A stretch of DNA of 64,000 bases, from positions 22,732 to 86,731 of the forward strand of contig URGK01000002.1 of assembly GCA_900547295.1 (NCBI GenBank). Direction: 5' to 3'. This DNA comes from an uncultured Eubacteriales bacterium. Its GTDB lineage: Bacteria; Bacillota; Clostridia; Peptostreptococcales; Anaerovoracaceae. Below the pieces are notes generated by a model. The model made no database searches, was not told where the DNA came from, and saw only the letters and a program-made list of their open reading frames with translations. Each line of letters begins with the position of its first letter. Position 1 is the stretch's first letter. Shown here piece after piece: positions 1,281 to 17,542 of this stretch. The position numbers and the translations under genes were made by a program.

Positions 1281-1553
1281 ATGGAAAAAAAGAACTATGT
1301 ATATATTTTAAAATGCTCAGACGGCACCTTTTATACCGGCTGGACAACAGACATTGAAGCCAGAGTAAATACCCATAACAGCGGCAGCGGAGCCAAATAC
1401 ACCAGAGGCCGCCGTCCTGTCAGCCTTGTATATTATGAGGAGCTTCCTGACAGATCCGCCGCATTAAAAAGAGAGGCAGCCATCAAAAGACTGCCTAGAA
1501 ATAAAAAGCTTGAACTTATAGCATCTAATCCTGCCCGCCCTTGTAAGGGTTGA
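1281..1553 (+). CDS. GIY-YIG nuclease family protein (UPF0213/YhbQ-like, 90 aa)
   Basis: N-terminal YVYILKCSDGTFYTGWTTDIEARVNTHNSG is the canonical GIY-YIG motif of small stand-alone UPF0213 proteins. Confidence 0.85.
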   Translation: MEKKNYVYILKCSDGTFYTGWTTDIEARVNTHNSGSGAKYTRGRRPVSLVYYEELPDRSAALKREAAIKRLPRNKKLELIASNPARPCKG

Positions 1554-2427
1554 CATGCACCATACAGTGCTTGACATCGGGGAAGTTTTTTTCAATTTCA
1601 TTATGCACACGCTCCGCTATGCCGTGCGCATCATAAAGGCTCAGATTTCCGTCTGCCGCTATTTCTACATCTGTATATATCTTCGCTCCGAAAATTCTCG
1701 TCTTGATATCATCAACCGCAAGCACACCCTCCTGCTTCATCACAATCTCTTCCATTTTTTCAACGGTTTCATCATCACAGGATTTGTCCGTAAGCTTGCC
1801 TACGGCCTCCATAAATATATCAACCGTAACCTTTAATATCATCACGCAGATTATAAGGCTGGCAATGGGGTCAAGCACCTGAAATCCAAGCCTTGCGCCA
1901 AGTATTCCCGCAAAGCTTCCAACCGATGACAGTACATCTGACCTGTGATGCCACGCCTCTGCCATAAGTGCGCTTGAGTTTATCTTCTTCGCTCCGTTTC
2001 TGGTGTACCAGAACATCGCTTCCTTTGATACTATTGAAATCACAGCGGCAATAAGGGCTATAAGACCCGGTGTTTCAATGCTGTCATAATTGCCGTAAAG
2101 AACTGTTTTAACTCCTGAATATCCTATTCCAAGCCCGACAGCGCACAGCACCACTGAAAGTATAATTGCAGCAATGCACTCTATTCTTTCGTGTCCGTAC
2201 TGATGATCGTGGTCTGAATCCTTAGCCGCTATTTTAACTCCCGCTATAACCACCATGCTGCTGAACACATCGGACAGTGAGTGTATGGCATCTGAAACCA
2301 TAGCCGCCGACCTGCCAAAAATACCCGCAAAGAGTTTGAATGCCGCCAGCACAATGTTGCCTGCTCCGCTTACCACTGATATCTTAACCGCAATCTGTTC
2401 ATTTGTTTTTGTCTTTTTCTCTCTCAT
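1525..2427 (-). CDS. Cation diffusion facilitator (CDF) family divalent-cation efflux transporter
   Basis: 6-TM N-terminal domain with HSLSDVFSS...DSDHDHQYGHERIE motif and cytoplasmic C-terminal domain typical of CzcD/FieF-type CDF proteins. Overlaps the 3' end of the convergent GIY-YIG gene by 29 nt. Confidence 0.9.
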   Translation of the reverse strand: MREKKTKTNEQIAVKISVVSGAGNIVLAAFKLFAGIFGRSAAMVSDAIHSLSDVFSSMVVIAGVKIAAKDSDHDHQYGHERIECIAAIILSVVLCAVGLGIGYSGVKTVLYGNYDSIETPGLIALIAAVISIVSKEAMFWYTRNGAKKINSSALMAEAWHHRSDVLSSVGSFAGILGARLGFQVLDPIASLIICVMILKVTVDIFMEAVGKLTDKSCDDETVEKMEEIVMKQEGVLAVDDIKTRIFGAKIYTDVEIAADGNLSLYDAHGIAERVHNEIEKNFPDVKHCMVHVNPYKGGQD

Positions 2428-2530
2428 AAATTATCACCTTACCTATTTTATTCACTGCCCCTGAATTGTTACTTTATCGTAAATGGGGTTAGGTCATTTC
2501 GCCGTAGTTTTCTTGCCAATCATATCCCGA

Positions 2531-2575
2531 AAATATAAAAAAACATCTGAAGGATATATATCGTCCCGCAGATGT
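2531..2575 (-). terminator. Rho-independent terminator downstream of flavoprotein gene
   Basis: Minus-strand RNA: AACAUCUG-cgggacgauauauauccuu-CAGAUGUU (8-bp stem) followed by UUUUUUUAUAUUUU. Confidence 0.55.
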
Positions 2576-2647
2576 TAATAATCTGTTGCCTTAAGCCCGG
2601 CTTTCGCCTGACAAAAACATTTTAATATATCGCGCTGCCTGTGTCAA

Positions 2648-3175
2648 CTATTTTACCTTGTCTGCCAGCATTGCAATCTTTTTAAGGTCATCAGGTCTGT
2701 TGGCAAGGTCATCTTTTTCTCCGGCGCTTACAGGCTCATAGAATACCATATCCCAGCCAAGATAGTCTGCTATACACCTGAAAGTGTCCTCTATAATCCT
2801 GTACTGAGGTCCCTCAAGCTCATCTTCACCTATGGCAATAACGCCTATCTTCTTTTTCTGTCCCTGCAGCAGATTACATCTTGCATACAGCTTGTCTATT
2901 GCAAGCTTGAGCTGAGCTGTAACGCCCCACCAGTATACAGGTGTTGCAAACAGAATGAAATCAGCCTCTTCAACCTTATCCATTACTTCATTGGTATCAT
3001 CTTTGTCAACACAGCTGCCCTCATTCTGACAGAAAAGACAGGCCTTGCACGGCGCTATTTTTTTAGCCTTAAGATTTATGATTTCAAAATCCTTATCTTC
3101 ACCGCCCATAAAGGCATTGATTGCAGCTACCGTATTTCCCTGTCTGGGACTTCCGTTAAGTATTAATTTTTTCAT
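2648..3175 (-). CDS. Flavodoxin-like fold NAD(P)H-dependent FMN reductase / iron-sulfur flavoprotein
   Basis: MKKLILNGSPRQGNT... N-terminus (flavodoxin-like FMN site), Cys cluster CKACLFCQNEGSC typical of Isf-type iron-sulfur flavoproteins, FILFATPVYWWG motif. Confidence 0.7.
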   Translation of the reverse strand: MKKLILNGSPRQGNTVAAINAFMGGEDKDFEIINLKAKKIAPCKACLFCQNEGSCVDKDDTNEVMDKVEEADFILFATPVYWWGVTAQLKLAIDKLYARCNLLQGQKKKIGVIAIGEDELEGPQYRIIEDTFRCIADYLGWDMVFYEPVSAGEKDDLANRPDDLKKIAMLADKVK

Positions 3176-3255
3176 ATTACACGCTCTCCTCTCGTTCCTT
3201 AATCCTGATATTTATTATATACAAAACGCAGACGCAAAACAATATCCTGCGTATA

Positions 3256-4050
3256 TCATCCGCCGTATATTCTGCCCACAATATACGACACCAGTCCTGC
3301 GGGAAGTATTTTGACAAGCGCGCAAAACAGCCTGTATTTAAAGCCTATCGTGTATACCGGCCTTACTTTTTTGGCTGAAGCGACAGTTGCTATTAAATGA
3401 GCCGCAGTTTCCGGCTTCATGCCGTTTTGCTCATCATGCTCCATTACAGCAACGCTTCTTGAAATTCTGCCGCTGTATATTTCATCGCCTGCATATGATT
3501 TTTCTCTAGCTCCCGTAAATCCTGTGCATATATCTCCGGGCTGAACCGCGCACACGCTTATTCCGTAAGGTCTAACCTCATTGATAAGCGCCATTGTATA
3601 TGAGTTTATTGCAGCCTTTGCAGCCGAATAGTATGCCTGAAACGGTATTGCTATAGGCGCCGCCACCGAGCTTATATTTACAATCCTGCCGCCTCCGGCT
3701 CTGCGCATAAACGGTATTACGGCTCTGTTCATATTGACCATTCCGAAGAAATTGACATCAAACTGTTTTCTGGCGTCTGCGGTTTCGGTAAACTCGACAG
3801 CGCCGGATATTCCAAAGCCTGCATTGTTAATCAGCACATCTATTCTGCCCGCTTTGTCTATGATATATGATACGGCTTCGTTTATACGCTTTTCATCTGT
3901 CACGTCAGCGGATATATGGTTTATACCCGCCGCGCCCTCTCTGCGTCTGCTTATATCAAAAACCTCATAGCCCTTTGCTTTCATTTCGAGAGCCGTGCAA
4001 AGACCGATGCCTGATGATCCGCCTGTAATTACACAAATTTTCTGCTCCAT
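3256..4050 (-). CDS. SDR family NAD(P)-dependent oxidoreductase
   Basis: TGGSSGIG Rossmann motif, NNAG, catalytic YSAAKAA; 264 aa. Start 1 nt after the ABC permease stop, suggesting co-transcription. Confidence 0.85.
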   Translation of the reverse strand: MEQKICVITGGSSGIGLCTALEMKAKGYEVFDISRRREGAAGINHISADVTDEKRINEAVSYIIDKAGRIDVLINNAGFGISGAVEFTETADARKQFDVNFFGMVNMNRAVIPFMRRAGGGRIVNISSVAAPIAIPFQAYYSAAKAAINSYTMALINEVRPYGISVCAVQPGDICTGFTGAREKSYAGDEIYSGRISRSVAVMEHDEQNGMKPETAAHLIATVASAKKVRPVYTIGFKYRLFCALVKILPAGLVSYIVGRIYGG

Positions 4051-4051
4051 A

Positions 4052-4801
4052 TTATTTATTGTCCTTTACCATCATTTTTTTAAATGCAATCACCGCAAGC
4101 ACTGAAATTACCACGGCATATGCAATATCCGTAACAAGGTACATCCAAAAGCCTTCGTATTCGCCCGATACTGCCATTCTGCCCATACAGGTTGCAGGAT
4201 ACCACGGCAGGAATTTGCATACGGTCTCCAGACTTCCCATAGTTTCAAGAGGCATCCACGCGCCGCCCAGCACCGCGCTTATAGTTATGATTGCGCTTGA
4301 TACTCCCGGAGCCGACTTGTCCGACAGAATACTTCCAAACAGAATTCCGATAGCCGTCATAACAACTATAACAGGCAGATCCACCGCAAAGTTAAGCAGC
4401 ACGCCGCCAAAGCTGAGGCTCACACCTGTTGCTGCCGCAATTATGTATGATACTATAACGCATATAATTATCTGTAAATATCCGAGAATAATTCCCGGAA
4501 CTCCATACCCGATGATATAGTCTGAGGTTTTCATAGGTGAGGAATAAAGTCTTGAAAGCAGCGAGGTTGTCCTGTCCTTGCTTACAAGTATAGCCATATA
4601 AAGCATTACAAAGGCAAATGCAAATACTATTATTCCTGGCATAAGAACATCTATGTTAAACCAGTATGCATCAGGTGTATAATGCCCTATAAGCTGAAAC
4701 ATTCCTATCATAGCCACAGGGAAAATCACACAGAATATTATTCCCAGCGGGTCCCTTAATATCTCCTTTATGTTTCTTGATGCAAAGTTCCACGCTTTCA
4801 T
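4052..4801 (-). CDS. ABC-2 type transporter permease
   Basis: 6 predicted TM helices, 249 aa, start overlaps the ATPase stop (ATGA). Confidence 0.8.
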   Translation of the reverse strand: MKAWNFASRNIKEILRDPLGIIFCVIFPVAMIGMFQLIGHYTPDAYWFNIDVLMPGIIVFAFAFVMLYMAILVSKDRTTSLLSRLYSSPMKTSDYIIGYGVPGIILGYLQIIICVIVSYIIAAATGVSLSFGGVLLNFAVDLPVIVVMTAIGILFGSILSDKSAPGVSSAIITISAVLGGAWMPLETMGSLETVCKFLPWYPATCMGRMAVSGEYEGFWMYLVTDIAYAVVISVLAVIAFKKMMVKDNK

Positions 4802-5526
4802 TACAGCTCACCTCCCACAAGTTTGATAAACGCGTCTTCAAAGCTTTCTGTTCCGGCTTTTTCAATAAGCTCCTGCGCGCTGCCGGAGGCTGTAATCCGG
4901 CCTGCTTTCATAATCGCTATACTGTCTGCAAGAGCCTCCGCCTCCTCCATATAGTGAGTTGTAAGTATTATTGTCTTGTGTCCTTTCAGCCCCTTTATTA
5001 TCTTCCAGAGCTCTCTCCTTGCTATGACGTCAAGCCCAAGTGTAGGCTCATCTAAAAACAGTATTTCGGGATCCGATATCAGCGCCATTGCAATGGAAAG
5101 TCTCCTCTGCCAGCCGCCCGAAAGTGTTTTTGCTCTCTGATTTATTATTTCCTCAAACTTAAATTCAGAAATTATCTTCTCAATCCTGTCGCTATCCTTA
5201 ACATCATATACCCCCGCTATAAATTCGAGGTTTTCCCTTACTGTCAGGTTTCCTGCAACTGCTGTTTCCTGCGGAGATACATTTACAATCTCCTTTACCT
5301 TGTCCGGGCTGTTTACAACTGAATAACCGTTAAGCAGTGCGTCTCCGGAGGTTGGTATGCTGAGCGCTGTAAGCATTTTAATTGTGGTAGTCTTGCCTGC
5401 TCCGTTAATTCCAAGCAGCGCAAACAGCTCTCCGTCCTTTATATCAAGTGAAATATTATCTACTGCTGTCCTGCTGCCAAACACCTTGGTCAGGTCTTTT
5501 ATCTCTATGCCCCTTTTATCACTCAT
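4801..5526 (-). CDS. ABC transporter ATP-binding protein
   Basis: Walker A GINGAGKTTT, signature LSGGWQRRLSIAMAL, Walker B LFLDEPTLGLD. Listed ORF extends to 5559, but the ATG at 5526 (MSDKRGIEIKDL...) gives ATGAGTGA overlap with the upstream AbrB-like stop, so 5526 is the probable start. Confidence 0.9.
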   Translation of the reverse strand: MSDKRGIEIKDLTKVFGSRTAVDNISLDIKDGELFALLGINGAGKTTTIKMLTALSIPTSGDALLNGYSVVNSPDKVKEIVNVSPQETAVAGNLTVRENLEFIAGVYDVKDSDRIEKIISEFKFEEIINQRAKTLSGGWQRRLSIAMALISDPEILFLDEPTLGLDVIARRELWKIIKGLKGHKTIILTTHYMEEAEALADSIAIMKAGRITASGSAQELIEKAGTESFEDAFIKLVGGEL

Positions 5527-5737
5527 CGCTTTTGCCTCCCATTTTTTTAATTCCGTCAAAAATAAGGTCTGCCACCGACAGTTCCGTTATTGCAATGCCT
5601 TTCTCCTTGTCTGCAAGCAGAAGCACCGAGTCGCCGGGTTTTAAGTCAAACATATCTCTTACGGCCTTGGGAATAACTATCTGGCCCTTCTCGCCGATTT
5701 TAACCGGCTGCATATATTTGCCCTCAGGAAATTTCAT
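5519..5737 (-). CDS. AbrB/MazE/SpoVT family swapped-hairpin DNA-binding protein (~72 aa)
   Basis: MKFPEGKYMQPVKIGEKGQIVIPKAVRDMFDLKPGDSVLLLADKEKGIAI matches the SpoVT/AbrB looped-hinge-helix fold. Start chosen at 5737 because GGAGGT lies 6 nt upstream; the listed ORF start at 5833 has no RBS. Confidence 0.75.
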   Translation of the reverse strand: MKFPEGKYMQPVKIGEKGQIVIPKAVRDMFDLKPGDSVLLLADKEKGIAITELSVADLIFDGIKKMGGKSDE

Positions 5738-5829
5738 AGGTTTACCTCCAGTTTTAAAAGTATAACTTGTATAACTAATTATACTTTTCACCCATACCTT
5801 TGTCAAGCAATTAAAAACAGAGCTGCATT

Positions 5830-6015
5830 TCACACTTTGCTCTGCTTAGCTCTGTTCAAGATTTCAAGTTCTTTTTTCTCTCTGCATTTCCTGCATATCA
5901 TATCGGAAATTATATCATCGCTTTGCAAAAATCCCTCACGTTTATACTCTGCTTCTCTTGTTCCCATAATCCTGCCGCACTGCGGACATATCACGTTTCT
6001 GGTTACTGTTATCAT
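5830..6015 (-). CDS. Small zinc-ribbon protein (61 aa), first gene of the AbrB-ABC-SDR operon
   Basis: MITVTRNVICPQCGRIMGTREAEYKREGFLQSDDIISDMICRKCREKK: two CxxC pairs (CPQC...CRKC). AGAGGT RBS 8 nt before the ATG at 6015; longer listed ORF (to 6075) lacks an RBS. Confidence 0.5.
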   Translation of the reverse strand: MITVTRNVICPQCGRIMGTREAEYKREGFLQSDDIISDMICRKCREKKELEILNRAKQSKV

Positions 6016-6075: not shown

Positions 6076-6114
6076 TCACAAATGAGTGAAAGGAGCCCAA
6101 AAGAGCTCCTTTCC
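6076..6114 (-). terminator. Rho-independent terminator after surface-protein paralog 1
   Basis: Minus RNA GAAAGGAGCUCUUUUGGGCUCCUUUC (9-bp stem) then ACUCAUUUGUG. Confidence 0.5.
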
Positions 6115-6126
6115 TGTTAAAGTTAT

Positions 6127-9018
6127 TTATTTACTCCAAGTTCTCAATCCGTATTTACACTGTTTAAGAACTGTCTGTCCTGCTAAAGTATCTCCGCTGT
6201 ATACCATAGCCTTAGCCTTGTAGTAGTACTTCGTGCCTTTCTTGCCGGCAGTGTTGATGTATGTGTTTGTATCCTTGGTCTTAACAGCTTTGTATCCTGC
6301 AGCTTTCTTTGCTGATCTGTAGAACTTGTATTTAACTGTATATCCTGCATCTGTCAGCGCAGTTATATCTCCCGATACTACAGCTTTGATGTTCTTCTTT
6401 GATGTCTTTGATGTTCTTACTTTAAGATTAACTTCCTTAATCATGATATCTAACTGTTCAGCCATAGCCTTATCAGCCTCATCCTTAGCCATTACTGCAT
6501 ATTCTGAGAAGTGGCCTGTTGTAAAGGTGTATGTACCGTCTGCGTTCTTCTGTCCGTTTACTAATGTGTAGATACCGTTGTCATTGATGTATACACATAC
6601 AACATCCTTGGCTGCAAGCTCCTTGGACAGGTTAATTGTAACCTTGACATTACCGCCATTGAAGTCCTTAACAGCTCCGTTTGATGTTATAAGTTTCAGG
6701 TTTACATGGCAGATGTTTTCATCAGACTTAATGGTTTCGATTATCAGTCTGACAAAACCTGTATTTCCTGCCTGCGCTGCAACTGCATCAAGCGCAGTCT
6801 TGTCTAAATCAACTTTACCGTTATCAGTTTTAATAACCAGATTGGCATCTGTTTTTTCAGCCAGTTCCTTAACTGTCTTTTCAGGTATGCCGACTTCTGA
6901 TGATGCTACATTGTTATTACCTGCTGCATCAACGATGATTTCTTCTGATTTATTTTCTAATGCTTTTTCAACAATCTTGTCTGCTGTCTTGGCATCTACA
7001 GTTGTTTCAGCCTTATTGTCCTTAACAGCCGGAGTAAGGTCAGCAGTTGTATTCTTATCTGCAGGGTTGTTGGTTACGTTGTCTGTAGGGGTTGATGGTG
7101 TGTATGGTACAGGCCTAACTGTCCAAGCGTCACCACTCTTATCAGCATAATATCCTGAAGCTACATATGCACTAGGATCTGATGAGAATGTACCGCCTGT
7201 GATAGTAGCAGTTCCCTTATATTTTTCGCTATTATCATAACGATCACAAAGCACCTTCTGATTATCTTTACTTATATATGTACCTCCTGTTACTGTCAGT
7301 TCTCCAACAGCACGATTTTCAGCATATTTTGCAGTAAATAAAACTGCTTCAGCACTGTCATTTGCTTCAAAGCTACCACCGGAAAGATTAGCCTTGTGCC
7401 AGTTCATAATAACAAACTGCGAAGTATTAGAGAAAGATCCGCCGCTAACCGTCAACTCACCTAATTCATCATTTTTTACAGTATTAATACCGCCAGAAAA
7501 GCTTCCCCCGTTTATTTTTAATTTGGATGCGCTTTGACTTGCACTATCACCGCCATTACGGATCATACTTGAGAAGTGTCCTTTATTTGTAACATTAACA
7601 CCATTTTTGATGGTCATATTACCACCCTTATCATTCAAAATAGTGTAGAAGCTATTCTTACCGGCACTGTCCTTATTATTCTCTTCATCCTCTAAACTTC
7701 GAGTATAAGTACCTCCATTAAGTATAGCTGTACCATAGTTAACTAAAGCTGCTTTGCCGTGAGTTACATTGTCTACAGTACCAGCCTTATTTTCACTGGT
7801 ATCCTCAATAGTAAGTGTACCTCTATTAACAATTGTATGGCTACCACTATTTGTTATCTTATTTCCGTTAAGGTCAATAGTTGCAGTACAATCTGCTAGT
7901 ATTGCAACATCCTTAGTAGCATCTTTACCAAGCTTAATTGTAACATTAGCACTTTCTCCAAGATAATCTACTGCACTTAAATCAGAATATGTACCACCTG
8001 TGATAAAATTTTTCTTATCTTCACTATATATAGCATTAGTTCCACCCTTTATAGCTGTAAAGTTTCCACCAGATACTGCGATTTTTACTTTAGCTATGTT
8101 TTCAACACTGTTTTTTTGTGGATTACTCTCGTATAGCGCACTGAAACCCTTTATATCTCCACTAATAATTTTTACGTCAATTGGTAAACCTGTAGTGTGC
8201 TGTGCAATCGCAATTCCCGCACCATCAGTAGTCGAGCCATTACCATTAGGAGTTACTGTTTTAGGTGCACTGGTGCCTGTAATCTCTGTATTTTCTGATA
8301 CAGTAAGTTCTCCTGCACGAATTTCTATTCCAGTAGCTCCTGTTATCTTTGCGCCTTCAATATTCCATTTCGCATATCCTGCAGCATAAATTCCATCTCC
8401 TACTGACTCAATAGTTGCAGTTGATCCTATTTTAATATTTGGAACGGCTCCTGTTGTGGCTACAATTTGCCCATTTATATAAATTCCAGATCCCTTGTCA
8501 CCAGATGTATCAGCAAGACCTTCAAGCTTACCGTTTACTGTGGCATTAATACCGTAATTTGAACCCTTATTCTGATCAATAAAAAGAGCACTCCAACCTC
8601 TAAGTGTGATATTTTCTCCAACTATAACATTGCTGTGATTTGTTTCAGTTTGCTGTGATCCGCCATTTAAAATAACTGGTCCAAAATAAGGCTCAGCTTC
8701 AGATACAGTTCCAGTGCCTTTAAACTCTAAAGTCCCATTTTTAACAGTAAAATGTTTTTTAGAAGAAAATGATATATTCTTACCATTCATATCTATAGTT
8801 ATATTTTTGCCATTTTCTATAACAATGACTTTCCCAACATTTACCAAATCCTCTTCTAATCTAATATTTATATTTTGACCAGTAGTATTACTTAAAGCAT
8901 TATTAAACTCTTCTATGCTTTTTACATGAACTACTGTTTCCTCCGCAGCAAACACCCCTATAGGCATCATTGCCACTATCATAGCCATACTTATGACTAT
9001 AGCCAATAACTTCTTCAT
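6127..9018 (-). CDS. Large secreted repeat protein, paralog 1 (963 aa). Signal peptide, Gly/Thr/Asn-rich beta-helix-like repeats, conserved ~330 aa C-terminal module.
   Basis: N-terminus MKKLLAIVISMAMIVAMMPIGVFA is identical to paralog 2. Central region is low-complexity G/N/T-rich with recurring xGGxFSxx/NGGT motifs. The C-terminal ~330 aa (PYTPSTPTDNVTNN...KQCKYGLRTWSK) is ~85% identical to paralog 2 and contains an Fn3-like YKFYRS...KYYYKAKA module also found in the M23 peptidases of this window. GGAGGG RBS. No LPXTG, SLH or choline-binding anchor seen. Confidence 0.8.
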   Translation of the reverse strand: MKKLLAIVISMAMIVAMMPIGVFAAEETVVHVKSIEEFNNALSNTTGQNINIRLEEDLVNVGKVIVIENGKNITIDMNGKNISFSSKKHFTVKNGTLEFKGTGTVSEAEPYFGPVILNGGSQQTETNHSNVIVGENITLRGWSALFIDQNKGSNYGINATVNGKLEGLADTSGDKGSGIYINGQIVATTGAVPNIKIGSTATIESVGDGIYAAGYAKWNIEGAKITGATGIEIRAGELTVSENTEITGTSAPKTVTPNGNGSTTDGAGIAIAQHTTGLPIDVKIISGDIKGFSALYESNPQKNSVENIAKVKIAVSGGNFTAIKGGTNAIYSEDKKNFITGGTYSDLSAVDYLGESANVTIKLGKDATKDVAILADCTATIDLNGNKITNSGSHTIVNRGTLTIEDTSENKAGTVDNVTHGKAALVNYGTAILNGGTYTRSLEDEENNKDSAGKNSFYTILNDKGGNMTIKNGVNVTNKGHFSSMIRNGGDSASQSASKLKINGGSFSGGINTVKNDELGELTVSGGSFSNTSQFVIMNWHKANLSGGSFEANDSAEAVLFTAKYAENRAVGELTVTGGTYISKDNQKVLCDRYDNSEKYKGTATITGGTFSSDPSAYVASGYYADKSGDAWTVRPVPYTPSTPTDNVTNNPADKNTTADLTPAVKDNKAETTVDAKTADKIVEKALENKSEEIIVDAAGNNNVASSEVGIPEKTVKELAEKTDANLVIKTDNGKVDLDKTALDAVAAQAGNTGFVRLIIETIKSDENICHVNLKLITSNGAVKDFNGGNVKVTINLSKELAAKDVVCVYINDNGIYTLVNGQKNADGTYTFTTGHFSEYAVMAKDEADKAMAEQLDIMIKEVNLKVRTSKTSKKNIKAVVSGDITALTDAGYTVKYKFYRSAKKAAGYKAVKTKDTNTYINTAGKKGTKYYYKAKAMVYSGDTLAGQTVLKQCKYGLRTWSK

Positions 9019-9034: not shown

Positions 9035-9057
9035 AATAAATAAATAAATAAATAAAT
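9035..9057. repeat. (AAAT)5 microsatellite in 5' UTR of paralog 1
   Basis: aataaataaataaataaataaat directly read; lies between the leader terminator hairpin and the RBS. Confidence 0.9.
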
Positions 9058-9087: not shown

Positions 9088-9124
9088 TAAATTAAAAAGA
9101 CAAGCTTCTGCCTGCCTTGCTGTC
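9088..9124 (-). terminator. Terminator-like hairpin + U-tract forming the expression platform of riboswitch copy 1
   Basis: Minus RNA GACAGCAAGGCAGGCAGAAGCUUGUC followed by UUUUUAAUUU, between the aptamer and the paralog 1 RBS. Confidence 0.5.
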
Positions 9125-9139
9125 GTAATAAATATTAGT

Positions 9140-9222
9140 CTGTATAACTGGCAGCCATACTCATTACGAGCTGCAGGCCCTATAGCTTTGCGCCCCTGTC
9201 TTTCGACAGATTTGCCCTTTTC
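9140..9222 (-). ncRNA. c-di-GMP-I (GEMM) riboswitch aptamer, copy 1
   Basis: Minus RNA ...AAAAGGGCAAAUCUGUCGAAAGACAGGGGCGCAAAGCUAUAGGGCCUGCAGCUCGUAAUGAGUAUGGCUGCCAGUUAUACAG. Matches the GEMM-I signature GGGCAAA-P1 stem-GAAA tetraloop-stem-GG(A/G)CGCAAAGC-P2 (compare Vc2 GGGCAAACCAUUCGAAAGAGUGGGACGCAAAGCCUCCGGCC...). Confidence 0.65.
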
Positions 9223-9237
9223 AATTTTTACCGTTTA

Positions 9238-9267
9238 ATTATACCCCTCCCCACGACGCTCTGTCAA
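9238..9267 (-). promoter_or_regulatory. Sigma-A promoter for riboswitch/paralog 1 (TTGACA-18-TATAAT)
   Basis: Minus strand TTGACAgagcgtcgtggggaggggTATAAT ~15 nt upstream of the aptamer 5' end. Confidence 0.55.
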
Positions 9268-9289: not shown

Positions 9290-9348
9290 TCAAAAACAGA
9301 CGATCCGCCGATAAAATTATCAGCGGATCATCTGTTTATTTATTTATC
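9290..9348 (-). terminator. Bidirectional hairpin terminator after paralog 2
   Basis: acagacgatccgccgataaaattatcagcggatcatctgt imperfect 18-bp inverted repeat flanked by A-run/T-run. Confidence 0.5.
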
Positions 9349-9409: not shown

Positions 9410-12109
9410 TTACTTACTCCAGGTTCTAGCTCCATACTTGCACTGTTTAAGAACTGTCTGTCCTACAAGCTTATCTCCGTCATATACAAGAGCCTTTGCC
9501 TTGTAGTAGTACTTGGTACCTTTCTTACCTGCAGTGTTGATGTATGTCTTGCCGGCTTTTGTTGCCTTTGCTACATACTTTGATGCTTTCTTTTCTGATC
9601 TGTAGAACTTGTACTTAACTGTATATCCTGCATCTGTCAATGCCTTAACATCTCCTGATACTACTGCCTTGATGTTCTTCTTTGCTGTCTTTGATGTTCT
9701 TACCTTAAGATTAACTTCCTTGATTAAGGTATTTAACTGTTCAGCTATTTTCTTGTCAGCCTCAGCTTTTGCCATTACAGCATATTCTGAGAAATGACCT
9801 GTTGTGAATGTGTATGTACCGTCTGCATTGAGAACCCCCTCTACCAATGTGTAGCTACCGTTGTCATCAATGTATACGCATACTAATTCCTTGGCTGCAA
9901 GCTCCTTATCAAGGTTAATTGTAACCTTGACATTACCGCCCCTGAAGTCTGTAACAGCGCCCTTTGATGTTACAAGCTTCAGATCCACATGGCAGATGTT
10001 TTCATCAGTCTTAACTGTTTCAACTGCAAGTTTAACAGTTCCGTCTGTTCCAGCCTGCTCTGCTACTGCTGCAAGGGCAGTCTTGTCTAAATCAACTTTA
10101 CCGTTGTCAGTTTTAATAACCAGACTGGCATCTGTTTTTTCAGCCAGTTCCTTAACTGTCTTTTCAGGTATAGCTACTTCTGATGAAGCTACAGTATTAT
10201 TGCCTGCTGCATCAACTATTACCTCTGTTGATTTGTTTTCTACTGCCTTGTCAACGATCTTGTCTGCTGTCTTGGCATCTACTGTTGTTTCAGCCTTGTT
10301 GTCCTTAACAGCCGGAGCAAGGTCAGCAGTTGTATTCTTATCTGTTGTATTATTGGTTACGTTGTCTGTAGGTGTTGATGGTGTGTATGGTCTGCCTACT
10401 GTATACGGACCATTACCTGTTACTATATATCCATCTGCTACATATGCTGTAGGATCTGATGAGAATGTACCGCCAGTTACTGACAACAAACACTTAGGAT
10501 CTTCGGGTTCTGTATCATAAAGTAATGCAATATCATTCAAAAACATACCGCCACTGACATTAACAATTGCTCCACCATAAGAGGAGTTTTTTACCACAGC
10601 CAATGCATATCCATTTGTTGATGAACCATTAAAATTTGCAACCTGTGTTTTTTCTGGTGCTGTATTATTAAATGTTCCACCCTTAATATCGAGTGTTCCG
10701 CCTTTAATTTCAATAGTACTTCCTTTGCCTGTACTATAATTTCCATTATTAATTACATATTTAGAATTTTTAGCAGCAAGATATAATTGTGCTTCAAACT
10801 CCCCATTATTAATAGTTATATTACTATTTTCATATGAGCCATTAGTATATACGTATCCCTTATATGTTCCATTATTTAATGTGGTTTCAGTATTATATAT
10901 TGAAAAAACCGAAAATTCTCCATCCAATACACCATTTTCTATAATAAGTGTACCATTATTCTGAACAGCAACTTGTTTACCTTTTATTGTACCATTTCCT
11001 GTTATTTTAAGTTTTGAATTTTCTCCAACTCGAATAGTTCTCACACAGCCTGTTTTATATGATACTTCTTTAGTATTCAAGTCAAGTGTTATATTTTTAT
11101 TTACTACAATGGTTTCATCTGTACTTATATCTTTTATAAGCTTTACAGTAGCTCCATCACTTGCAGCATCAATTGCTCCGGCAAGAGTTTTAAAACACTG
11201 TTCATCTATTGAGGCTACTGCATCTGCTGGATCTGTATTCCTTACAACAGTACCATCTGTTTTTAAAACATATCCATCTGCAATGTACGCTCTCACATCA
11301 CCTGAGAATGTGCCACCTCTAATAGCATTTTTCTTGGTAGAAACCTCACCATTAAATTTTCCACCTAAGATTTCAATATTTGATCCTTTTGCAGAAACTG
11401 CAGTCGGTCCAGAGATTTCTCCGTTTTTAATAGTTATTGTACTCATAGAACTTCCACAGATTGCAGTTATATAAGTTTCATTATCTGCTGATACCGCAGT
11501 GATTTCGCCTCCATTCATTTCAAAAGCTGCATTTGAGTTTCTAATGTTTACAGCAAAATTACCTCTTAAAGCAGTTGCTATTACTTTACCACCATTCATA
11601 ATGGCTTTTCCATTACCACCAATATAAATTGTGCTTCCAGCCTTAGCCATACCTTCACCGGTAATAATAGTTCCAGCTTCAATTGTCAGGCTTCCATTTC
11701 CTTCAACTGAAACAACTCTGCCTGATGTTCCTGTGTAACCCGAGCAGATTTTGCCACTGCCAATGCTGTCTTTAACTATTACGTTTCCCTTTATAAGTAG
11801 CGCTTGCTGGTTTACAGATGTATTAGTACCGCTAAGTATATGTCCGTTAAGGTCGATTGTCAGTTTTTTATTTTCCTCAATTGTAGTTGTCTTACCCGTA
11901 ACTGTAACATTATTTATTAGCTTTATAGTACTATTCTCTACCGCAGCATCAATAGCCTCCTGTAACGTATCATAATGTGTAGTGCCTATTGCTGCCTGAT
12001 GACTACAATTCTCTGCTGTACAATTCTCTGCTGTATCAGCAAACACCCCCATTGGCATCATTGCCACTATCATAGCCATACTTATGACTATTGCCAATAA
12101 CTTCTTCAT
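9410..12109 (-). CDS. Large secreted repeat protein, paralog 2 (899 aa)
   Basis: Same signal peptide (MKKLLAIVISMAMIVAMMPMGVFA) and same C-terminal module (PYTPSTPTDNVTNN...KQCKYGARTWSK) as paralog 1, divergent central beta-helix-like repeat region. Cys-containing N-terminal AENCTAENCS segment. GGAGGGTG RBS. Confidence 0.8.
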   Translation of the reverse strand: MKKLLAIVISMAMIVAMMPMGVFADTAENCTAENCSHQAAIGTTHYDTLQEAIDAAVENSTIKLINNVTVTGKTTTIEENKKLTIDLNGHILSGTNTSVNQQALLIKGNVIVKDSIGSGKICSGYTGTSGRVVSVEGNGSLTIEAGTIITGEGMAKAGSTIYIGGNGKAIMNGGKVIATALRGNFAVNIRNSNAAFEMNGGEITAVSADNETYITAICGSSMSTITIKNGEISGPTAVSAKGSNIEILGGKFNGEVSTKKNAIRGGTFSGDVRAYIADGYVLKTDGTVVRNTDPADAVASIDEQCFKTLAGAIDAASDGATVKLIKDISTDETIVVNKNITLDLNTKEVSYKTGCVRTIRVGENSKLKITGNGTIKGKQVAVQNNGTLIIENGVLDGEFSVFSIYNTETTLNNGTYKGYVYTNGSYENSNITINNGEFEAQLYLAAKNSKYVINNGNYSTGKGSTIEIKGGTLDIKGGTFNNTAPEKTQVANFNGSSTNGYALAVVKNSSYGGAIVNVSGGMFLNDIALLYDTEPEDPKCLLSVTGGTFSSDPTAYVADGYIVTGNGPYTVGRPYTPSTPTDNVTNNTTDKNTTADLAPAVKDNKAETTVDAKTADKIVDKAVENKSTEVIVDAAGNNTVASSEVAIPEKTVKELAEKTDASLVIKTDNGKVDLDKTALAAVAEQAGTDGTVKLAVETVKTDENICHVDLKLVTSKGAVTDFRGGNVKVTINLDKELAAKELVCVYIDDNGSYTLVEGVLNADGTYTFTTGHFSEYAVMAKAEADKKIAEQLNTLIKEVNLKVRTSKTAKKNIKAVVSGDVKALTDAGYTVKYKFYRSEKKASKYVAKATKAGKTYINTAGKKGTKYYYKAKALVYDGDKLVGQTVLKQCKYGARTWSK
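12005..12034. repeat. Perfect 15-bp tandem duplication (acaattctctgctgt x2) inside paralog 2 N-terminus
   Basis: Read directly; in-frame, encodes AENCT-AENCS. Confidence 0.9.
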
Positions 12110-12159
12110 TTAATCACCCTCCTTAACTCGGATATTTAATTACTCAGGGCTGCCTCTGC

Positions 12160-12190
12160 CATAATAAAAGGACAAGCCTTAACCTGTCCT
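12160..12190 (-). terminator. Terminator-like hairpin of riboswitch copy 2 expression platform
   Basis: Minus RNA GGACAGGUUAAGGCUUGUCC followed by UUUUAUUAU. Confidence 0.5.
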
Positions 12191-12214: not shown

Positions 12215-12297
12215 CTATGTAACTGGCAGCCATGCTCTATTGAGCTTCAGGCTCTGTAGCTTTGCATCCCTGTCTTTCGACAGATTTGCCCTCTTTT
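12215..12297 (-). ncRNA. c-di-GMP-I (GEMM) riboswitch aptamer, copy 2
   Basis: Minus RNA GGGCAAAUCUGUCGAAAGACAGGGAUGCAAAGCUACAGAGCCUGAAGCUCAAUAGAGCAUGGCUGCCAGUUACAUAG. Same architecture as copy 1 with compensatory changes (GCUC-GUAAU-GAGU vs GCUC-AAUA-GAGC). Confidence 0.65.
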
Positions 12298-12310
12298 GTT
12301 TTACTCTTAA

Positions 12311-12340
12311 AGTATACCCTCCCCCCTGGTGCTTTGTCAA
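12311..12340 (-). promoter_or_regulatory. Sigma-A promoter for riboswitch/paralog 2 (TTGACA-18-TATACT)
   Basis: Minus strand TTGACAaagcaccaggggggagggTATACT. Confidence 0.55.
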
Positions 12341-12430: not shown

Positions 12431-13261
12431 TTAAGCTTCTGCCGCTTTTGGCTCTGCAGGCTTTCTCTTTGCTCTCAGGTTTATGATAGCACCTGTAGGG
12501 CATTCCTTAGCGCAGAGTCCGCAGTTTTTGCATTTTTCAGGATCTATTGCAGCCAGATTGTTCTCAATTGTAACTGCTTCGAATTTGCAGACCTTTTCGC
12601 ATTTTTTGCAGCCTATGCAGCCGTTTGTGCAGGCTTTTCTTGTCTTTGCTCCCGGATCTGTAGAGTTACAGTGAACGATAACCTTGTTCTTTGCCGGAGC
12701 AATCCTGATAACATGGTTAGGGCATGCTTTTTCGCACATACCGCAGCCTACGCAGAGCTCTCTGTTTACAACCGCAACACCATCGCATACACTGATTGCG
12801 CCGTAAGCGCATACAGCCTCGCAGTCACCAAAGCCAAGACATCCGTGTGAACATACATTGACACCGCCAAACATCTGCTTTGCAGCCTTGCAGGTTGAAT
12901 GTCCCTGATATTCCATCAGGGTTTTTGCTGCTCCTGTGTTGCCGTTGCACATTACTACAGCAACCACAGGCTCTGCTGACTCTGCCTCAACGCCCAGAAC
13001 GCCGGCAAGTTTTGCCGCAAGGTCAGCGCCGCCTACAGGACATTTTGCCGTACCGATGCTCGGATCACCGCCAAGAGCGGCAGCATAGTCGTCACAGCCG
13101 GCAAAGCCGCAGGCTCCGCAGTTTGCTCCCGGAAGTTCATTTCTTAAGTTTGCAACTGTTTCATCAACCGGTACATAGAAAACTTTTGATGCGATAGTAA
13201 GAATAACGGCCAACACTAAACCGATTGCCATAACCAGTAATACCGGAATTAAAATATTCAT
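12431..13261 (-). CDS. rnfB: Rnf complex subunit B (ferredoxin-like, polyferredoxin)
   Basis: N-terminal TM, CGACGFAGCDDYAAAL motif, multiple CxxCxxC 4Fe-4S motifs. Confidence 0.9.
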   Translation of the reverse strand: MNILIPVLLVMAIGLVLAVILTIASKVFYVPVDETVANLRNELPGANCGACGFAGCDDYAAALGGDPSIGTAKCPVGGADLAAKLAGVLGVEAESAEPVVAVVMCNGNTGAAKTLMEYQGHSTCKAAKQMFGGVNVCSHGCLGFGDCEAVCAYGAISVCDGVAVVNRELCVGCGMCEKACPNHVIRIAPAKNKVIVHCNSTDPGAKTRKACTNGCIGCKKCEKVCKFEAVTIENNLAAIDPEKCKNCGLCAKECPTGAIINLRAKRKPAEPKAAEA

Positions 13262-13279
13262 CTCTTTCGCCTCCTCATT

Positions 13280-13849
13280 CTATACCAGTCCGCCGAATCC
13301 CATAAATGCAAGGGACAGGAAAGCAGCTGAAACCAATGTGATAGGTACACCCTGGAAAGCTTTAGGAATAGCCTCGTTGCCTTCAAGCTTCATTCTCATT
13401 CCTGAGAAAAGAACCATTGCAAGCAGGAAGCCGATTCCCGCACCGGCAGAGTTTACTAATGCCTGAGCATAGTTGTAACCCTCATCAATATTTGAAATAC
13501 ACACACCTAAAACTGCGCAGTTTGTAGTTATCAGCGGCAGATAAACTCCCAGCGATCTGTGAAGCGCCGGTATGAATTTTTTGAGCGCCATCTCTACAAA
13601 CTGAACAAGCGCAGCTATAATCAGTATGAATACAATTGTCTGCAGATAACCGATTCCCAGTTTGTCAAGGATAAGCATAATCGGCCATGTTGCGGCAGTT
13701 GCAAGAACCATTACGAAAATTACCGCAACACCCATTCCGACTGAGGAATCTAGTTTTTTGGAAACACCAAGGAACGGACATATACCGAGGAATTGAGCCA
13801 GTACATAGTTGTTCACAAGGATAATACCTACTAAAATAGTGAAATACAT
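13280..13849 (-). CDS. rnfA: Rnf complex subunit A
   Basis: 189 aa polytopic membrane protein, RnfA/NqrE family sequence; position in rnfCDGEAB order. Confidence 0.9.
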   Translation of the reverse strand: MYFTILVGIILVNNYVLAQFLGICPFLGVSKKLDSSVGMGVAVIFVMVLATAATWPIMLILDKLGIGYLQTIVFILIIAALVQFVEMALKKFIPALHRSLGVYLPLITTNCAVLGVCISNIDEGYNYAQALVNSAGAGIGFLLAMVLFSGMRMKLEGNEAIPKAFQGVPITLVSAAFLSLAFMGFGGLV

Positions 13850-14559
13850 TATGCTTCAGCTCCTTTCTTTATCTCTGCTTCAAGCGCTTCTATGCATTTT
13901 TCCTGCTGGCAGATGGAAGCCATTGCGCAGCCCCTGCAGTCAAAGCTGCCCTTAACACCTTTGCCCTTAGTGAAGTGATTGATTGCCGCAATCATAATCG
14001 CATATACGAAGAATCCGCCCGGAGCCAGCGCTATGATAAGCATTGGGTGAACGCTGAGCCAAGGAAGCGCAATTCCGAAGATTGTGCCTGCGCCTATGAT
14101 TTCTCTGATAGCGCCCATAATTCCAAGCGCCAGTGTAAATCCAAGACCCATTCCGATACCGTCTAAAGCGGAATCCAGAGCGTTGTTCTTTGATGCGAAC
14201 ATCTCGGCTCTTCCGAGTATGATACAGTTTACTACTATCAGAGGTATGAACAGTCCCAGTGAGTCATAAAGTGACGGTACAAACGCCTGCAGTACAAACT
14301 GTACTACGGTCACAAAGCCTGCAATTACTACGATATAGCAAGGTATTCTCACTTTGTCGGGTATAATCTTTGCAAGCAGTGAAATAACTATATTCGAGCA
14401 GATCAGTACTGCCATTGCGGAAACACCCATTCCAAGACCGTTTAATGCCGAGCTTGTGGTTGCCAGTGTAGGACATGTTCCGAGAAGGAGCACCAGTACC
14501 GGGTTTTCCTTAATTATGCCTTTGGTTAATATGGCGAGTTTACTTACTTTGTTTTCCAT
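13849..14559 (-). CDS. rnfE: Rnf complex subunit E
   Basis: 236 aa RnfE/NqrD family membrane protein; ATGA overlap with rnfA. Confidence 0.9.
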   Translation of the reverse strand: MENKVSKLAILTKGIIKENPVLVLLLGTCPTLATTSSALNGLGMGVSAMAVLICSNIVISLLAKIIPDKVRIPCYIVVIAGFVTVVQFVLQAFVPSLYDSLGLFIPLIVVNCIILGRAEMFASKNNALDSALDGIGMGLGFTLALGIMGAIREIIGAGTIFGIALPWLSVHPMLIIALAPGGFFVYAIMIAAINHFTKGKGVKGSFDCRGCAMASICQQEKCIEALEAEIKKGAEA

Positions 14560-15128
14560 TAGTTAGCACCTCCCACTTCCTTGTATTGTTCAAGCGCTGC
14601 GCATACACCGTAATGTACCGCATTTGATGATATTGTAGCGCCGCTGACATGAGTAACGTTTGTATCATCTTTAGCTGTAAATGCACTGTAGCTGTCAAGT
14701 CCCACATACTGTTCCAGATACGAAGGCTCCTGCGCCTTGGTGCCAAGACCCGGAGTATCAGCATGTGCAGTAACCTTAACGCCTGTAATGCAGCCGTCAG
14801 TATCTATACCTACCATTTCGGTAAGCAGTCCGCCGAAGGACTTGGATTTAACGGTAACAACCATACCTGTGTCATTGTCGGCAATATAGCAGTCTGTAAC
14901 GAAAACCTTGTCGGCTTCGAGGACAACCAGATCGCCGTCATAAGCTGTAAATGAGTCTGCTGAAGGCAGAAGCTCAGCTCTTGCCTCGTCTGCCGCCTTA
15001 ATTGAGTTCTGTTCAATTATAGGGGCTGTGATTGAGTTAATGTATGCAAGCGCACCTGTGATAACAAGGCAGATTACTACAAGAACAAGTGATGGTGCAA
15101 TATATTCTCTGAATTTATTACTTTTCAT
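14559..15128 (-). CDS. rnfG: Rnf complex subunit G (FMN-binding)
   Basis: N-terminal TM anchor, FMN-binding motif THVSGATISS. Start 15128 preferred (GGAGG upstream); listed ORF start 15146 is possible. Confidence 0.85.
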   Translation of the reverse strand: MKSNKFREYIAPSLVLVVICLVITGALAYINSITAPIIEQNSIKAADEARAELLPSADSFTAYDGDLVVLEADKVFVTDCYIADNDTGMVVTVKSKSFGGLLTEMVGIDTDGCITGVKVTAHADTPGLGTKAQEPSYLEQYVGLDSYSAFTAKDDTNVTHVSGATISSNAVHYGVCAALEQYKEVGGAN

Positions 15129-16095
15129 TTTTCTTTGCACCTCCATACATTCTTTTCTGACAGAAGTTATCTATTAACGGAGTAACTATATTCATTAACA
15201 GTATTGAGAATGAAACTCCTTCAGGATACTGGCCGTACAGCCTTATCAGCATTGTGATAACACCGCAGCCTATGCCGAATATAACTTTGCCCATAGGAAG
15301 TATCGGCGTTGTAACATAGTCTGTTGCCATAAAGAAGGCACCGAGCATAACGCCGCCTGCAAGTACATGGAATACTGCCATCTGAAGCGCGTTTCCGTCG
15401 CCTGTTGCAGCATAGTATATAAGCGCAAATACAAATACTGTTCCGATAAAGCATGCCGGAATTATAGGACTTATAATCTTTCTCCAGATGAGGAACAGTC
15501 CTCCGATAAGCAGCATCAGGGCGCTTACTTCACCCATTGAACCGCCTATGTATCCCATAAACATATCCATATTTGACGGAAGCTCTCCGCCGCCCTCTGC
15601 AAGTATGCCCAGCGGAGTTGCGCCTGTCTGCGCATCTGCTCCTGTGAAAGGAACAGGCCATGTTGTCATTTCTGTTGCAAATGCTATAAACAGCACTATT
15701 CTTGCTGTGATAGCAGGGTTTACAAGGTTTTTGCCTATGCCGCCGTAAAGCTGCTTAACTATGATGATAGCTACAAAGCAGCCTACTATTGCAATCCAGT
15801 AAGGCAGACCTGACGGCACGTTGAATGCAATCAGAACGCCTGTTACCGCAGCACTTAAATCGCCTACTGTCTGAGGTTTTTTCATAAGCTTGTTGTATGC
15901 CCATTCGAAGAACATACAGGACACAAGGCAAACCAGTGTAAGAGCTATAACTCTCGGTCCGAATACATATATGCTCATTGCAAATGACGGAGCAAGTGCA
16001 ATCAGAACCATCAGCATAATTCTGGTGGTATCAGTGTTTGATACTATATGAGGTGCTGATGAAACTGTTAAATTACTGTATATTTTCTTGTCCAT
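15118..16095 (-). CDS. rnfD: Rnf complex subunit D
   Basis: Polytopic membrane protein with DAQTGATPLG motif (RnfD/NqrB flavinylation region). Confidence 0.9.
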   Translation of the reverse strand: MDKKIYSNLTVSSAPHIVSNTDTTRIMLMVLIALAPSFAMSIYVFGPRVIALTLVCLVSCMFFEWAYNKLMKKPQTVGDLSAAVTGVLIAFNVPSGLPYWIAIVGCFVAIIIVKQLYGGIGKNLVNPAITARIVLFIAFATEMTTWPVPFTGADAQTGATPLGILAEGGGELPSNMDMFMGYIGGSMGEVSALMLLIGGLFLIWRKIISPIIPACFIGTVFVFALIYYAATGDGNALQMAVFHVLAGGVMLGAFFMATDYVTTPILPMGKVIFGIGCGVITMLIRLYGQYPEGVSFSILLMNIVTPLIDNFCQKRMYGGAKKNEK

Positions 16096-17405
16096 TACTT
16101 AATTCCAGCCTCCTTTACTATTGCTTTTCCAAGCTTGTTCATAAAGCTGAGAGGTCTTCTTGCAGGGCAGATATATGAGCAGCTGCCACATTCCATGCAC
16201 TGCATTACCTGCAGATTGGAAAGCGCCTGCGCATCCTTTGCCTCATATGCCTTGGCCAGTGCCGTAGGTATCAGGCCGAAAGGACAGGCTCTGTGACATC
16301 TGCCGCAGTTGATGCAGGCAGTTTCTTCTTTTACTCCTGCCTTTTCTTTGGAGAAGGCCAGTATCGCATTGTTGTTTTTAACAACAGGCATTTCATCTGA
16401 TACTATGGCTCTGCCCATCATAGGTCCTCCCATAAGGATTTTTCTGGGCTCCTGTTTGTATCCGCCGCAGAATTCTATGACATCACAAATTCTGGCACCG
16501 ATAGGAACTATTACGTTCTTTGGCTGGGCTACAGCATCTCCGTCTACGGTAATTCTCTTTGAAACAAGAGGCATACCTGTTCTGAAATATTTGCCTACAA
16601 ATGCTATTGTGGTGACATTTGATAAAATGACACCGAGCTCTGCAGGAAGCACACCTGCGTTCATTTTCTTGCCTGTAATCTCATATACGAGAACTCTTTC
16701 GGCTCCCTTAGGGTATCTTGCCTGCAGTTTGAAAGTATGAATATTGGTTATACCTTTTGATGCAAGCAGTTTGTCAATGTGCTCGATAGCATCCGGTTTG
16801 TTCTCTTCGATACCGATATATCCCTCATCAAGACCTATATATTTCATAACCAGCTGGCAGCCGGAAATAAGATCCTCCGCATCCTCAAGCATTGCTCTGT
16901 GGTCAGAGGTAATGAACGGTTCGCACTCTGCCGCATTGACGATAAGTGTATGAACGTCATCGATATTCTTAGGGTTAAATTTAATATGTGTAGGGAATGA
17001 AGCTCCTCCAAGGCCTACCAGACCGCTGTCTCTGATTGCTTTTATAAATTCAGGCAGATCCTTAGCCTCAGGTACTTTAATTCCTTCATAAGGTTCCTGC
17101 TTTTTGTCTGCTTCAATTACAACAAGTGTGTCTGTTCCTCCCATAGCTGATCTCTGTTCTTCGATTCCTGCCACGGTCCCGGAAACACTTGAATAAATAG
17201 GGGCACTTACAAAAGCATCTACATCTCCGATAAGCTGGCCGACTTTAACGTAGTCGCCCTTCTGCACCAGCGGCTTGCACGGCGCTCCAATGTGCTGAGA
17301 CATAGATATTTTTACAACATCAGGTACAGGCATTACTTCGGTTGCACTGCCGGCAGTGTTCTTGTAATGACTCACGTGAATGCTGTGTAAATGTTTTCGA
17401 CTCAT
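16095..17405 (-). CDS. rnfC: Rnf complex subunit C (NADH-binding, 2x[4Fe-4S])
   Basis: CINCGRCHRACP and CMECGSCSYICP ferredoxin motifs; RnfC N-terminal domain. Start 17405 (GGAAGG RBS) preferred over listed 17438. Confidence 0.9.
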   Translation of the reverse strand: MSRKHLHSIHVSHYKNTAGSATEVMPVPDVVKISMSQHIGAPCKPLVQKGDYVKVGQLIGDVDAFVSAPIYSSVSGTVAGIEEQRSAMGGTDTLVVIEADKKQEPYEGIKVPEAKDLPEFIKAIRDSGLVGLGGASFPTHIKFNPKNIDDVHTLIVNAAECEPFITSDHRAMLEDAEDLISGCQLVMKYIGLDEGYIGIEENKPDAIEHIDKLLASKGITNIHTFKLQARYPKGAERVLVYEITGKKMNAGVLPAELGVILSNVTTIAFVGKYFRTGMPLVSKRITVDGDAVAQPKNVIVPIGARICDVIEFCGGYKQEPRKILMGGPMMGRAIVSDEMPVVKNNNAILAFSKEKAGVKEETACINCGRCHRACPFGLIPTALAKAYEAKDAQALSNLQVMQCMECGSCSYICPARRPLSFMNKLGKAIVKEAGIK

Positions 17406-17542
17406 TATTGTGAGACCTTCCTTTCTAAAAATATACAAAAATACTCTTTACATCATACTACAAACTCAAACAAAAATCCATACTTTTGCGACAATTATGG
17501 CTAATTGGAGTACAGATAATTTTTTCCGCCTAGCACTTTGGT

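Follow-up and report, generated by a model that had tools for sequence, protein, structure and literature searches.

[quoted passage not shown] The initial annotation had placed a class I c-di-GMP (GEMM) aptamer on the minus strand of the window, meaning the whole 64-kb stretch of DNA analyzed here. A cmscan search of this entire window against all 4227 families of Rfam 15, using the very model that the annotation had proposed as a check, bears this out. The c-di-GMP-I (GEMM-I) family RF01051 matches 9140-9226 (-) over its full length (model positions 1-87 of 87) with 64.3 bits, not below but far above its gathering score of 35 bits, and the E-value of 2.7e-10 refers to the entire 64-kb window and all 4227 families. 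The match is far above chance, and family membership marks the segment as a true c-di-GMP riboswitch aptamer of class I. The variant clan members c-di-GMP-I-GGC and c-di-GMP-I-UAU were rejected, RF01051 being the best clan member kept by cmscan. The leader letters quoted in the annotation, GGGCAAAUCUGUCGAAAGACAGGGGCGCAAAGC at 9217-9185, GGGCC at 9180-9176 and GGCUGCC at 9156-9150, all match the minus strand. Its range of 9088-9267 takes in promoter, aptamer and terminator and leaves outside the last 70 nt of the leader, up to the start codon at 9018. Three Rfam matches in the window reach their gathering thresholds: two c-di-GMP-I aptamers and a glycine riboswitch (RF00504, 48183-48286 (-), 50.3 bits, gathering score 32), which lies upstream of a 474-aa ORF at 46679-48103 (-).

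The anatomy of this aptamer, referred to as copy 1, follows from the cmscan alignment. P2 occupies 9215-9190 (-), reads UCUGUC-GAAA-GACAGG with GC/GC closing pairs and carries its GAAA tetraloop at 9204-9201, while P3 occupies 9187-9146 (-) and spans AGCU...GGGCC to GGC..CC.AGUU. The hallmark of class I, a GNRA-capped P2 flanked by GGCAAA...GCAAAG, is present. In an alignment of nine family aptamers, 93.7% of cells form the pairs that the Rfam structure requires, compared with 29-40% when the register is slid by one to three columns as a control. P2 pairs in 98% of cells and has two compensatory pairs, with changes from U-A to C-G; the P3 helices pair in 89-92% of cells, with the UAUGG half of the tetraloop receptor present. 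As the 5' half of that receptor, copy 1 has CCUGCAG and the second window aptamer (copy 2) has CCUGAAG; the canonical CCUAAG occurs only in the family locus L049. The minimum-free-energy folds inspected yield no convincing P1 helix for copy 1. The best partner of the A-rich 5' flank in these folds is the terminator U-run, a pairing discounted as a by-product of composition rather than a designed helix.

Ligand-contact positions were compared with the structural reference Vc2 of Vibrio cholerae, whose numbering was transferred through the invariant 27-nt G20-A47 spacing and the C44-G83 interhelical pair (PMC4744006, PMC11218506) by way of model positions 11, 35, 38, 74 and 83. The copy-1 equivalents are G9216 for G20, C9192 for C44, A9189 for A47, G9152 for G83 and U9144 for C92, so that the ligand-stacking A47, G20 and the C44/G83 interhelical pair are all retained (positions per PMC4744006). 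U9144 sits at model position 83, the Vc2 C92 column, with high posterior probability; the copy-2 base is C (12219). U also occupies this column in L001, L002 and the sub-threshold L003, and six other family leaders have C. Copy 2 has a substitution of its own, U (GAUGC, 12266) at the C44 position, where copy 1 and the consensus have C. In Vc2, C92 is the Watson-Crick partner of the second ligand guanine, and C92 and G20 are less conserved than A47 (PMC9049102); the C92U change weakens the in vivo response without abolishing it (bioRxiv 10.1101/617340). Because C92 is the less conserved position and its replacement by U only weakens the Vc2 response, U9144 is not grounds for exclusion. It is treated here as a natural variant, perhaps of lower affinity, that keeps its family membership, and comparison of the two aptamers suggests that the tandem riboswitches may differ in affinity. 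This base, the second aptamer and the poly-G promoter spacer described below had all been missed in the initial annotation.

The aptamer stands within a compact transcription unit. A sigma-70-type promoter, TTGACA-18-TATAAT, is present at 9238-9267 (-) as annotated, with 12/12 hexamer matches in a consensus scan, and the 3' half of its spacer is a G tract, GGGGAGGGG, at 9252-9244 (-). The distance of about 15 nt previously given between promoter and aptamer holds only approximately: from the end of the -10 box it is 12 nt to the first model position and 21 nt to GGGCAAA. Behind the aptamer, the predicted hairpin plus U-run was located as the terminator of the expression platform at 9094-9118 (-). 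It consists of AAGGCAGGC-AGAA-GCUUGUCUU at 9118-9097 (-), a 9-bp stem (9118-9110 with 9105-9097) closed by an AGAA loop, followed by the U-run UUUAAUUU; the hairpin alone is worth -11.2 kcal/mol. Seven paralogous leaders hold a hairpin and U-run at the same place despite altered stem sequences. The start codon at 9018 lies 76 nt past the U-run. Between the terminator and the ribosome-binding site runs an (AUUU)n tetranucleotide repeat of 5.8 copies (9035-9057 (-)), which is polymorphic in length, with 5.8 copies in the window and L001 and about 3.5 in L002.

The unit is bounded on both sides. A strong 20-bp terminator of the upstream paralog at 9294-9337 (-) (-31.6 kcal/mol, z = -6.9, then U5) shields the copy-1 promoter from read-through, and a terminator-like hairpin at 6088-6113 (-) lies directly past the stop codon of the regulated gene. 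With terminators before (9337-9294) and after (6113-6088), the riboswitch governs one gene from its own promoter, and the unit is monocistronic.

Folds of growing transcripts, constrained folds and the folding of seven paralogous leaders show how the aptamer and the terminator could communicate. In minimum-free-energy folds of copy 1, the linker segment AUAUUUAUUACGA at 9123-9135 (-) forms a 13-bp alternative helix with distal P3 (9169-9157) once about 110 nt have been made, and keeps it in every longer transcript. As soon as the terminator 5' arm is made, its GCAGGC (9115-9110) pairs with GCCUGC (9178-9173) in the P3 5' strand. The aptamer side of this antiterminator spans 9157-9178 (-), comprising GCCUGC and UCGUAAUGAGUAU at 9169-9157 (distal P3 and loop). 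Constrained folds give -32.2 kcal/mol for aptamer plus terminator and -39.4 kcal/mol for the antiterminator state with the terminator 3' arm unpaired, and the unconstrained minimum free energy is -46.8 kcal/mol. By these energies the antiterminator, and with it read-through, is the default unless ligand holds P3. The terminator lies about 25 nt past the aptamer and has no bases in common with it. Folding of the aptamer therefore does not tie up the terminator, and this speaks against an ON design.

Each of the seven paralogous leaders folded (7/7) permits pairing between the P3 5' strand and the terminator 5' arm or loop, through differing bases (GCCUG:CAGGC, AAAGCU:GGCUUU, CUAAAGG:CCUUUAG). 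In copy 2 and L050, the aptamer-plus-terminator fold is already the minimum-free-energy structure without ligand (for copy 2, -36.1 versus -26.5), which weakens the thermodynamic case for switching; there, switching would need kinetics. The arrangement of a transcription-termination riboswitch claimed in the annotation is real in its promoter-aptamer-terminator layout, and a mutually exclusive antiterminator pairing can be modeled.

These elements suggest the following course of events. Transcription would start a few bases past the -10 box (9243-9238), and the aptamer would emerge first, then the linker, then the terminator. Without ligand, GCCUGC of P3 would hold GCAGGC of the terminator 5' arm while the linker holds distal P3, and this antiterminator would block the terminator hairpin, allowing the gene to be transcribed. 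When c-di-GMP is bound, P2 and P3 would be locked together and the terminator 5' arm released; the freed hairpin and U-run would then form, and transcription would stop near 9094. On this account the cell would produce the protein while c-di-GMP is low and cease to do so when it is high. Since a ligand-locked aptamer frees the terminator, the modeled design is that of an OFF switch, a direction that the initial annotation had left unstated and that we consider likely provided the RNA is functional. In C. difficile, class I riboswitches are OFF switches, and one of them precedes a putative adhesin (PMC6200980). That the RNA binds its ligand, that it works by termination and that it switches in this direction are here deduced from computed elements, namely family membership, promoter, terminator, alternative pairings and recurrence before paralogs. 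Taken as a whole, the account of a genuine aptamer that acts as an OFF switch by termination on a single secreted beta-helix gene is probably correct. A regular-expression scan found no GGDEF or HD-GYP motif in any ORF of the 64-kb window, a result that is uninformative for the whole genome; with no diguanylate cyclase motif in that window, c-di-GMP synthesis in the organism is assumed.

The opposite direction deserves weighing. In an ON switch, c-di-GMP would favor read-through as it does for Bc2-cbpA in B. thuringiensis, and the surface protein would appear at high c-di-GMP. Adhesins are generally favored by high c-di-GMP, class I ON switches are on record (Bc2 before cbpA, PMC7423583; Cdi-1-1, PMC6200980), and copy 2 and L050, which terminate by thermodynamic default without ligand, depart from a simple OFF prediction. 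The architecture nevertheless makes such a switch quite improbable: beyond the roughly 25 nt and the zero bases shared between aptamer and terminator, the terminator 5' arm has a single strong competitor, the P3 5' strand, and ligand sequesters that strand; the folds contain no linker-terminator pairing that forms solely with the folded aptamer. A different idea is altered sensing. In that case U9144 would have retuned copy 1 to a lower c-di-GMP affinity, so that it responds to high levels only, or to a preference for 3'3'-cGAMP, whose A would pair with the U; copy 2, with its C, would be the high-affinity form, and the paralogs would differ in threshold or signal. The confidently aligned U of copy 1 opposite the C of copy 2, and its recurrence in L001, L002 and sub-threshold L003 against C in six other leaders, speak for this idea. 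Against it stands G20: natural GEMM-I RNAs that sense cGAMP have as their defining mark an A at this position, and the copy-1 equivalent is G. The G20A variant is noted to bind cGAMP (PMC7288161). Moreover, the ligand could plausibly form a G-U wobble, the alignment of the unpaired tail is less certain than that of the helices, and cGAMP production in this organism is an assumption of the reading. Published work gives it some room, as C92U in Vc2 weakens the response rather than abolishing it (bioRxiv 10.1101/617340), G20A/C92U redirects Vc2 to c-di-AMP (PMC7288161, PMC9049102), and G20 and C92 are conserved less than A47 (PMC9049102). On balance, retuning of copy 1 in this sense is unlikely.

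It is also conceivable, though highly improbable, that the aptamer binds c-di-GMP but bypasses the predicted terminator, affecting RNA stability or translation instead, or that it is a decaying relic without regulatory effect. Vc2 itself gave no termination in vitro and works through RNA stability (bioRxiv 10.1101/617340), and several C. difficile class I copies are without function (PMC6200980). In related genomes, paralogs have had the aptamer deleted (L040, L051) or do not have it (L052, L176, L177), which makes the element dispensable. Against this, the aptamer is identical in L001 and nearly identical in L002, scores far above threshold and maintains its helices despite sequence change. 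Moreover, a hairpin and U-run stand behind the aptamer in seven of eight leaders and farther downstream in L007, and loss of the aptamer always takes the terminator too (L040, L051). This joint loss suggests that the two form one working unit.

The regulated gene lies at 6127-9018 (-) and encodes a protein of 963 aa with the Sec-type signal peptide MKKLLAIVISMAMIVAMMPIGVFA. The annotation had spoken of a giant surface protein; at 963 aa it is large rather than giant. Its AlphaFold model, built on a 69-sequence alignment, has a mean pLDDT of 81.8 and two beta-solenoid domains and leaves the tail unmodeled, and structure comparison recognizes the right-handed beta-helix in this predicted model. 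The two helices cover about residues 29-345 and 353-636 and are followed by an alpha/beta region (648-845) and by a basic tail rich in lysine, which makes up the last 110 aa and has a net charge of +17. The protein matches no Pfam or NCBIfam family, and these libraries reveal no recognized wall anchor (LPXTG, SLH, CWB2) in it. Distant homologs of its N-terminal part carry SLH or CBM_X2 domains, which would fit an extracellular, wall-associated role, while the basic tail is only suggestive of a possible wall-binding element. The secreted protein is presumably displayed on the cell surface.

The same fold is found in Gram-positive adhesins (the binding region of L. reuteri SRRP and PfbA of S. 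pneumoniae), in autotransporter passengers (Vag8 and pertactin of Bordetella, UpaB and Fap2), in alginate, pectate and other polysaccharide lyases, and in phage tailspikes. Identity to these known beta-helix proteins is only 9-15%, and here two helices stand in tandem with a different C-terminal module. The claim that the target family is undescribed holds insofar as Pfam and NCBIfam have no family for it, but its fold is the ordinary right-handed beta-helix of adhesins and polysaccharide-active enzymes.

The upstream paralog repeats the promoter-aptamer-terminator arrangement. Its gene lies at 9410-12109 (-), and its leader carries the second c-di-GMP-I aptamer at 12215-12300 (-) (RF01051, 62.0 bits). 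A consensus scan and an alignment of the two leaders place a promoter (12340-12311) and a terminator (12190-12169) on either side of this aptamer as well. The signal peptide is nearly the same in both window paralogs, which share 27.5% identity in their N-terminal regions and 80% in the last 359 aa. Just past the terminator U-run of copy 2, at 12145-12160 (-), a conserved element GGCAG-N3-GCAGCCCUG also occurs in L010, L038 and L050 and is absent from copy-1-type leaders. It complements the aptamer GGCUGCC (P3 3' strand), pairs with it in the full-leader minimum-free-energy fold and might have an effect on transcripts that read through. Next to the surface-protein pair on its upstream side, 12431-17438 (-) contains Rnf/Nqr-type subunit genes and a 4Fe-4S (RnfB-like) gene, an apparent rnf operon. 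The downstream neighborhood (1525-5833) includes an AbrB/MazE-like gene, an ABC-2 transporter, a short-chain dehydrogenase and a cation-efflux gene.

The protein family reaches well beyond this window, with 2852 homologs that come nearly all from metagenome assemblies. A genome scan places it in metagenome-assembled genomes (MAGs), mostly from human gut, labeled uncultured Clostridia/Clostridiales, Christensenellaceae, Oscillospiraceae and Anaerovoracaceae, with many paralogs per genome. RF01051 matches lie upstream of family genes in L001, L002, L007, L010, L038, L049 and L050; sequence inspection adds an aptamer before the family gene of L178, and L003 has a sub-threshold one of 33.5 bits. 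The L001 protein is 96% identical to the 963-aa protein and is encoded beside an rRNA operon and Flg_new-repeat proteins, not rnf. In L176 and L177 the protein is 70% identical and the leader is a different one without aptamer, and L052 has a 46-nt leader, also without aptamer. L040 and L051 retain only GGGCAAA and the P2 5' strand, joined to the former terminator 5' arm; in these remnants (about 2920-2990 in L040, about 2900-2990 in L051), GGGCAAAGCUGCC runs straight into GGCAGGCUUUG. Both keep a poly-G promoter and a short leader and belong to the same MAG as the intact L049. Such junctions read as a joint deletion of aptamer and terminator. The association between aptamer and family is recurrent yet labile. 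In L002 (4098-7040), a gene with a different N-terminal region stands behind a leader of the copy-1 type, complete with the U92 equivalent and the AUUU repeat, and in L178 the copy-2 position downstream of rnfB is taken by a paralog of 949 aa. Judging from these comparisons, strains appear to have reshuffled their leaders, loci and N-terminal regions.

A further layer of control may reside in the promoters. All family promoters follow the pattern TTGACA-N7-9-poly(G)-TATA[AC]T, with G tracts of 7-11 and spacers of 16-20 nt; they were seen in the window and in L002, L007, L010, L038, L040, L049, L050, L051, L052 and L178. The two window tracts, at 9244-9252 (-) and 12317-12326 (-), are each interrupted by one A. 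Tract length differs between loci and between strains. At the orthologous copy-2 locus, with rnfA and rnfB upstream, L178 has G5AG3 and a spacer of 17, the window has G6AG3 and a spacer of 18, and the promoter is otherwise identical. This difference would be the expected signature of slipped-strand spacer variation, and the promoters could be phase-variable. Among the matches listed from a metagenome scan for TTGACA-N14-24-TATAMTTWARNNGTAAAA, there was no family promoter, only unrelated chance matches. The nearest precedent is the C. difficile flgB leader, where an invertible flagellar switch is stacked on a class I riboswitch (PMC5386303). A broader reading, possible but doubtful, sees the family as a system of combinatorial surface variation, in which a shared signal peptide and C-terminal module would be combined with exchangeable N-termini, with a stochastic poly-G promoter before each gene and, before a subset of the genes, with aptamers retuned or deleted one by one. 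The retuning would then consist of U at C92 in copy 1 and U at C44 in copy 2, and phase variation would be stacked on the second messenger.

Comparison with characterized systems indicates how much of this is familiar. As the annotation stated, riboswitches of this class before clostridial surface proteins are documented, with a putative adhesin of C. difficile as an example (PMC6200980), and B. thuringiensis has a class I riboswitch before a putative adhesin gene (PMC7423583). The C. difficile class I set includes Cd1/Cdi-1-3 (flgB), Cdi-1-2 (the calcium-binding putative adhesin CD630_27970) and Cdi-1-12 (zmpI) (PMC6200980), and it shares the Rfam family and the clostridial 5'-leader layout with the present case. 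Transcriptional OFF control of surface and secreted targets is measured in C. difficile (PMC6200980) and predicted here. Unlike C. difficile, the host is an uncultured gut member of the Clostridia, the beta-helix target has no Pfam model, and two tandem paralogs each have their own copy of the riboswitch; the suspected phase element is a poly-G promoter spacer rather than an invertible DNA segment.

Like Vc2, the aptamer has a GAAA-capped P2, the UAUGG receptor half in P3 and equivalents of G20, A47 and C44-G83. It differs from Vc2 in the U at the C92 equivalent of copy 1, in a receptor 5' half of CCUGCAG instead of CCUAAG, and in its platform, a clear intrinsic terminator, whereas Vc2 acts via RNA stability (bioRxiv 10.1101/617340). 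With Bc2 (CbpA) and Bc1 of B. thuringiensis it shares a class I aptamer, a large Gram-positive surface protein and a terminator-based platform (PMC7423583, PMC11218506). Bc2, however, switches ON, and its target CbpA has an LPXTG motif and a domain that binds collagen, whereas the present switch is predicted to be OFF and its target has beta-helices and no recognizable anchor.

The riboswitch class, the layout and the association with surface proteins are thus already known in kind. What is new is the host lineage, the unannotated beta-helix target family and the tandem duplication with differently tuned copies, together possibly with the poly-G promoter layer. These findings extend c-di-GMP riboswitch control to a family of uncharacterized beta-helix surface proteins, rich in paralogs, that belongs to uncultured Clostridia of the human gut. 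They also offer a handle on protein function, as expression is expected at low c-di-GMP. Moreover, the tandem paralogs provide a natural experiment on threshold tuning in class I riboswitches, because their aptamers differ at ligand-contact and tertiary positions and their platforms differ in strength. If the poly-G tracts do phase-vary, they would be, beside the invertible element of C. difficile flgB, a second means of combining stochastic switching with the sensing of c-di-GMP.
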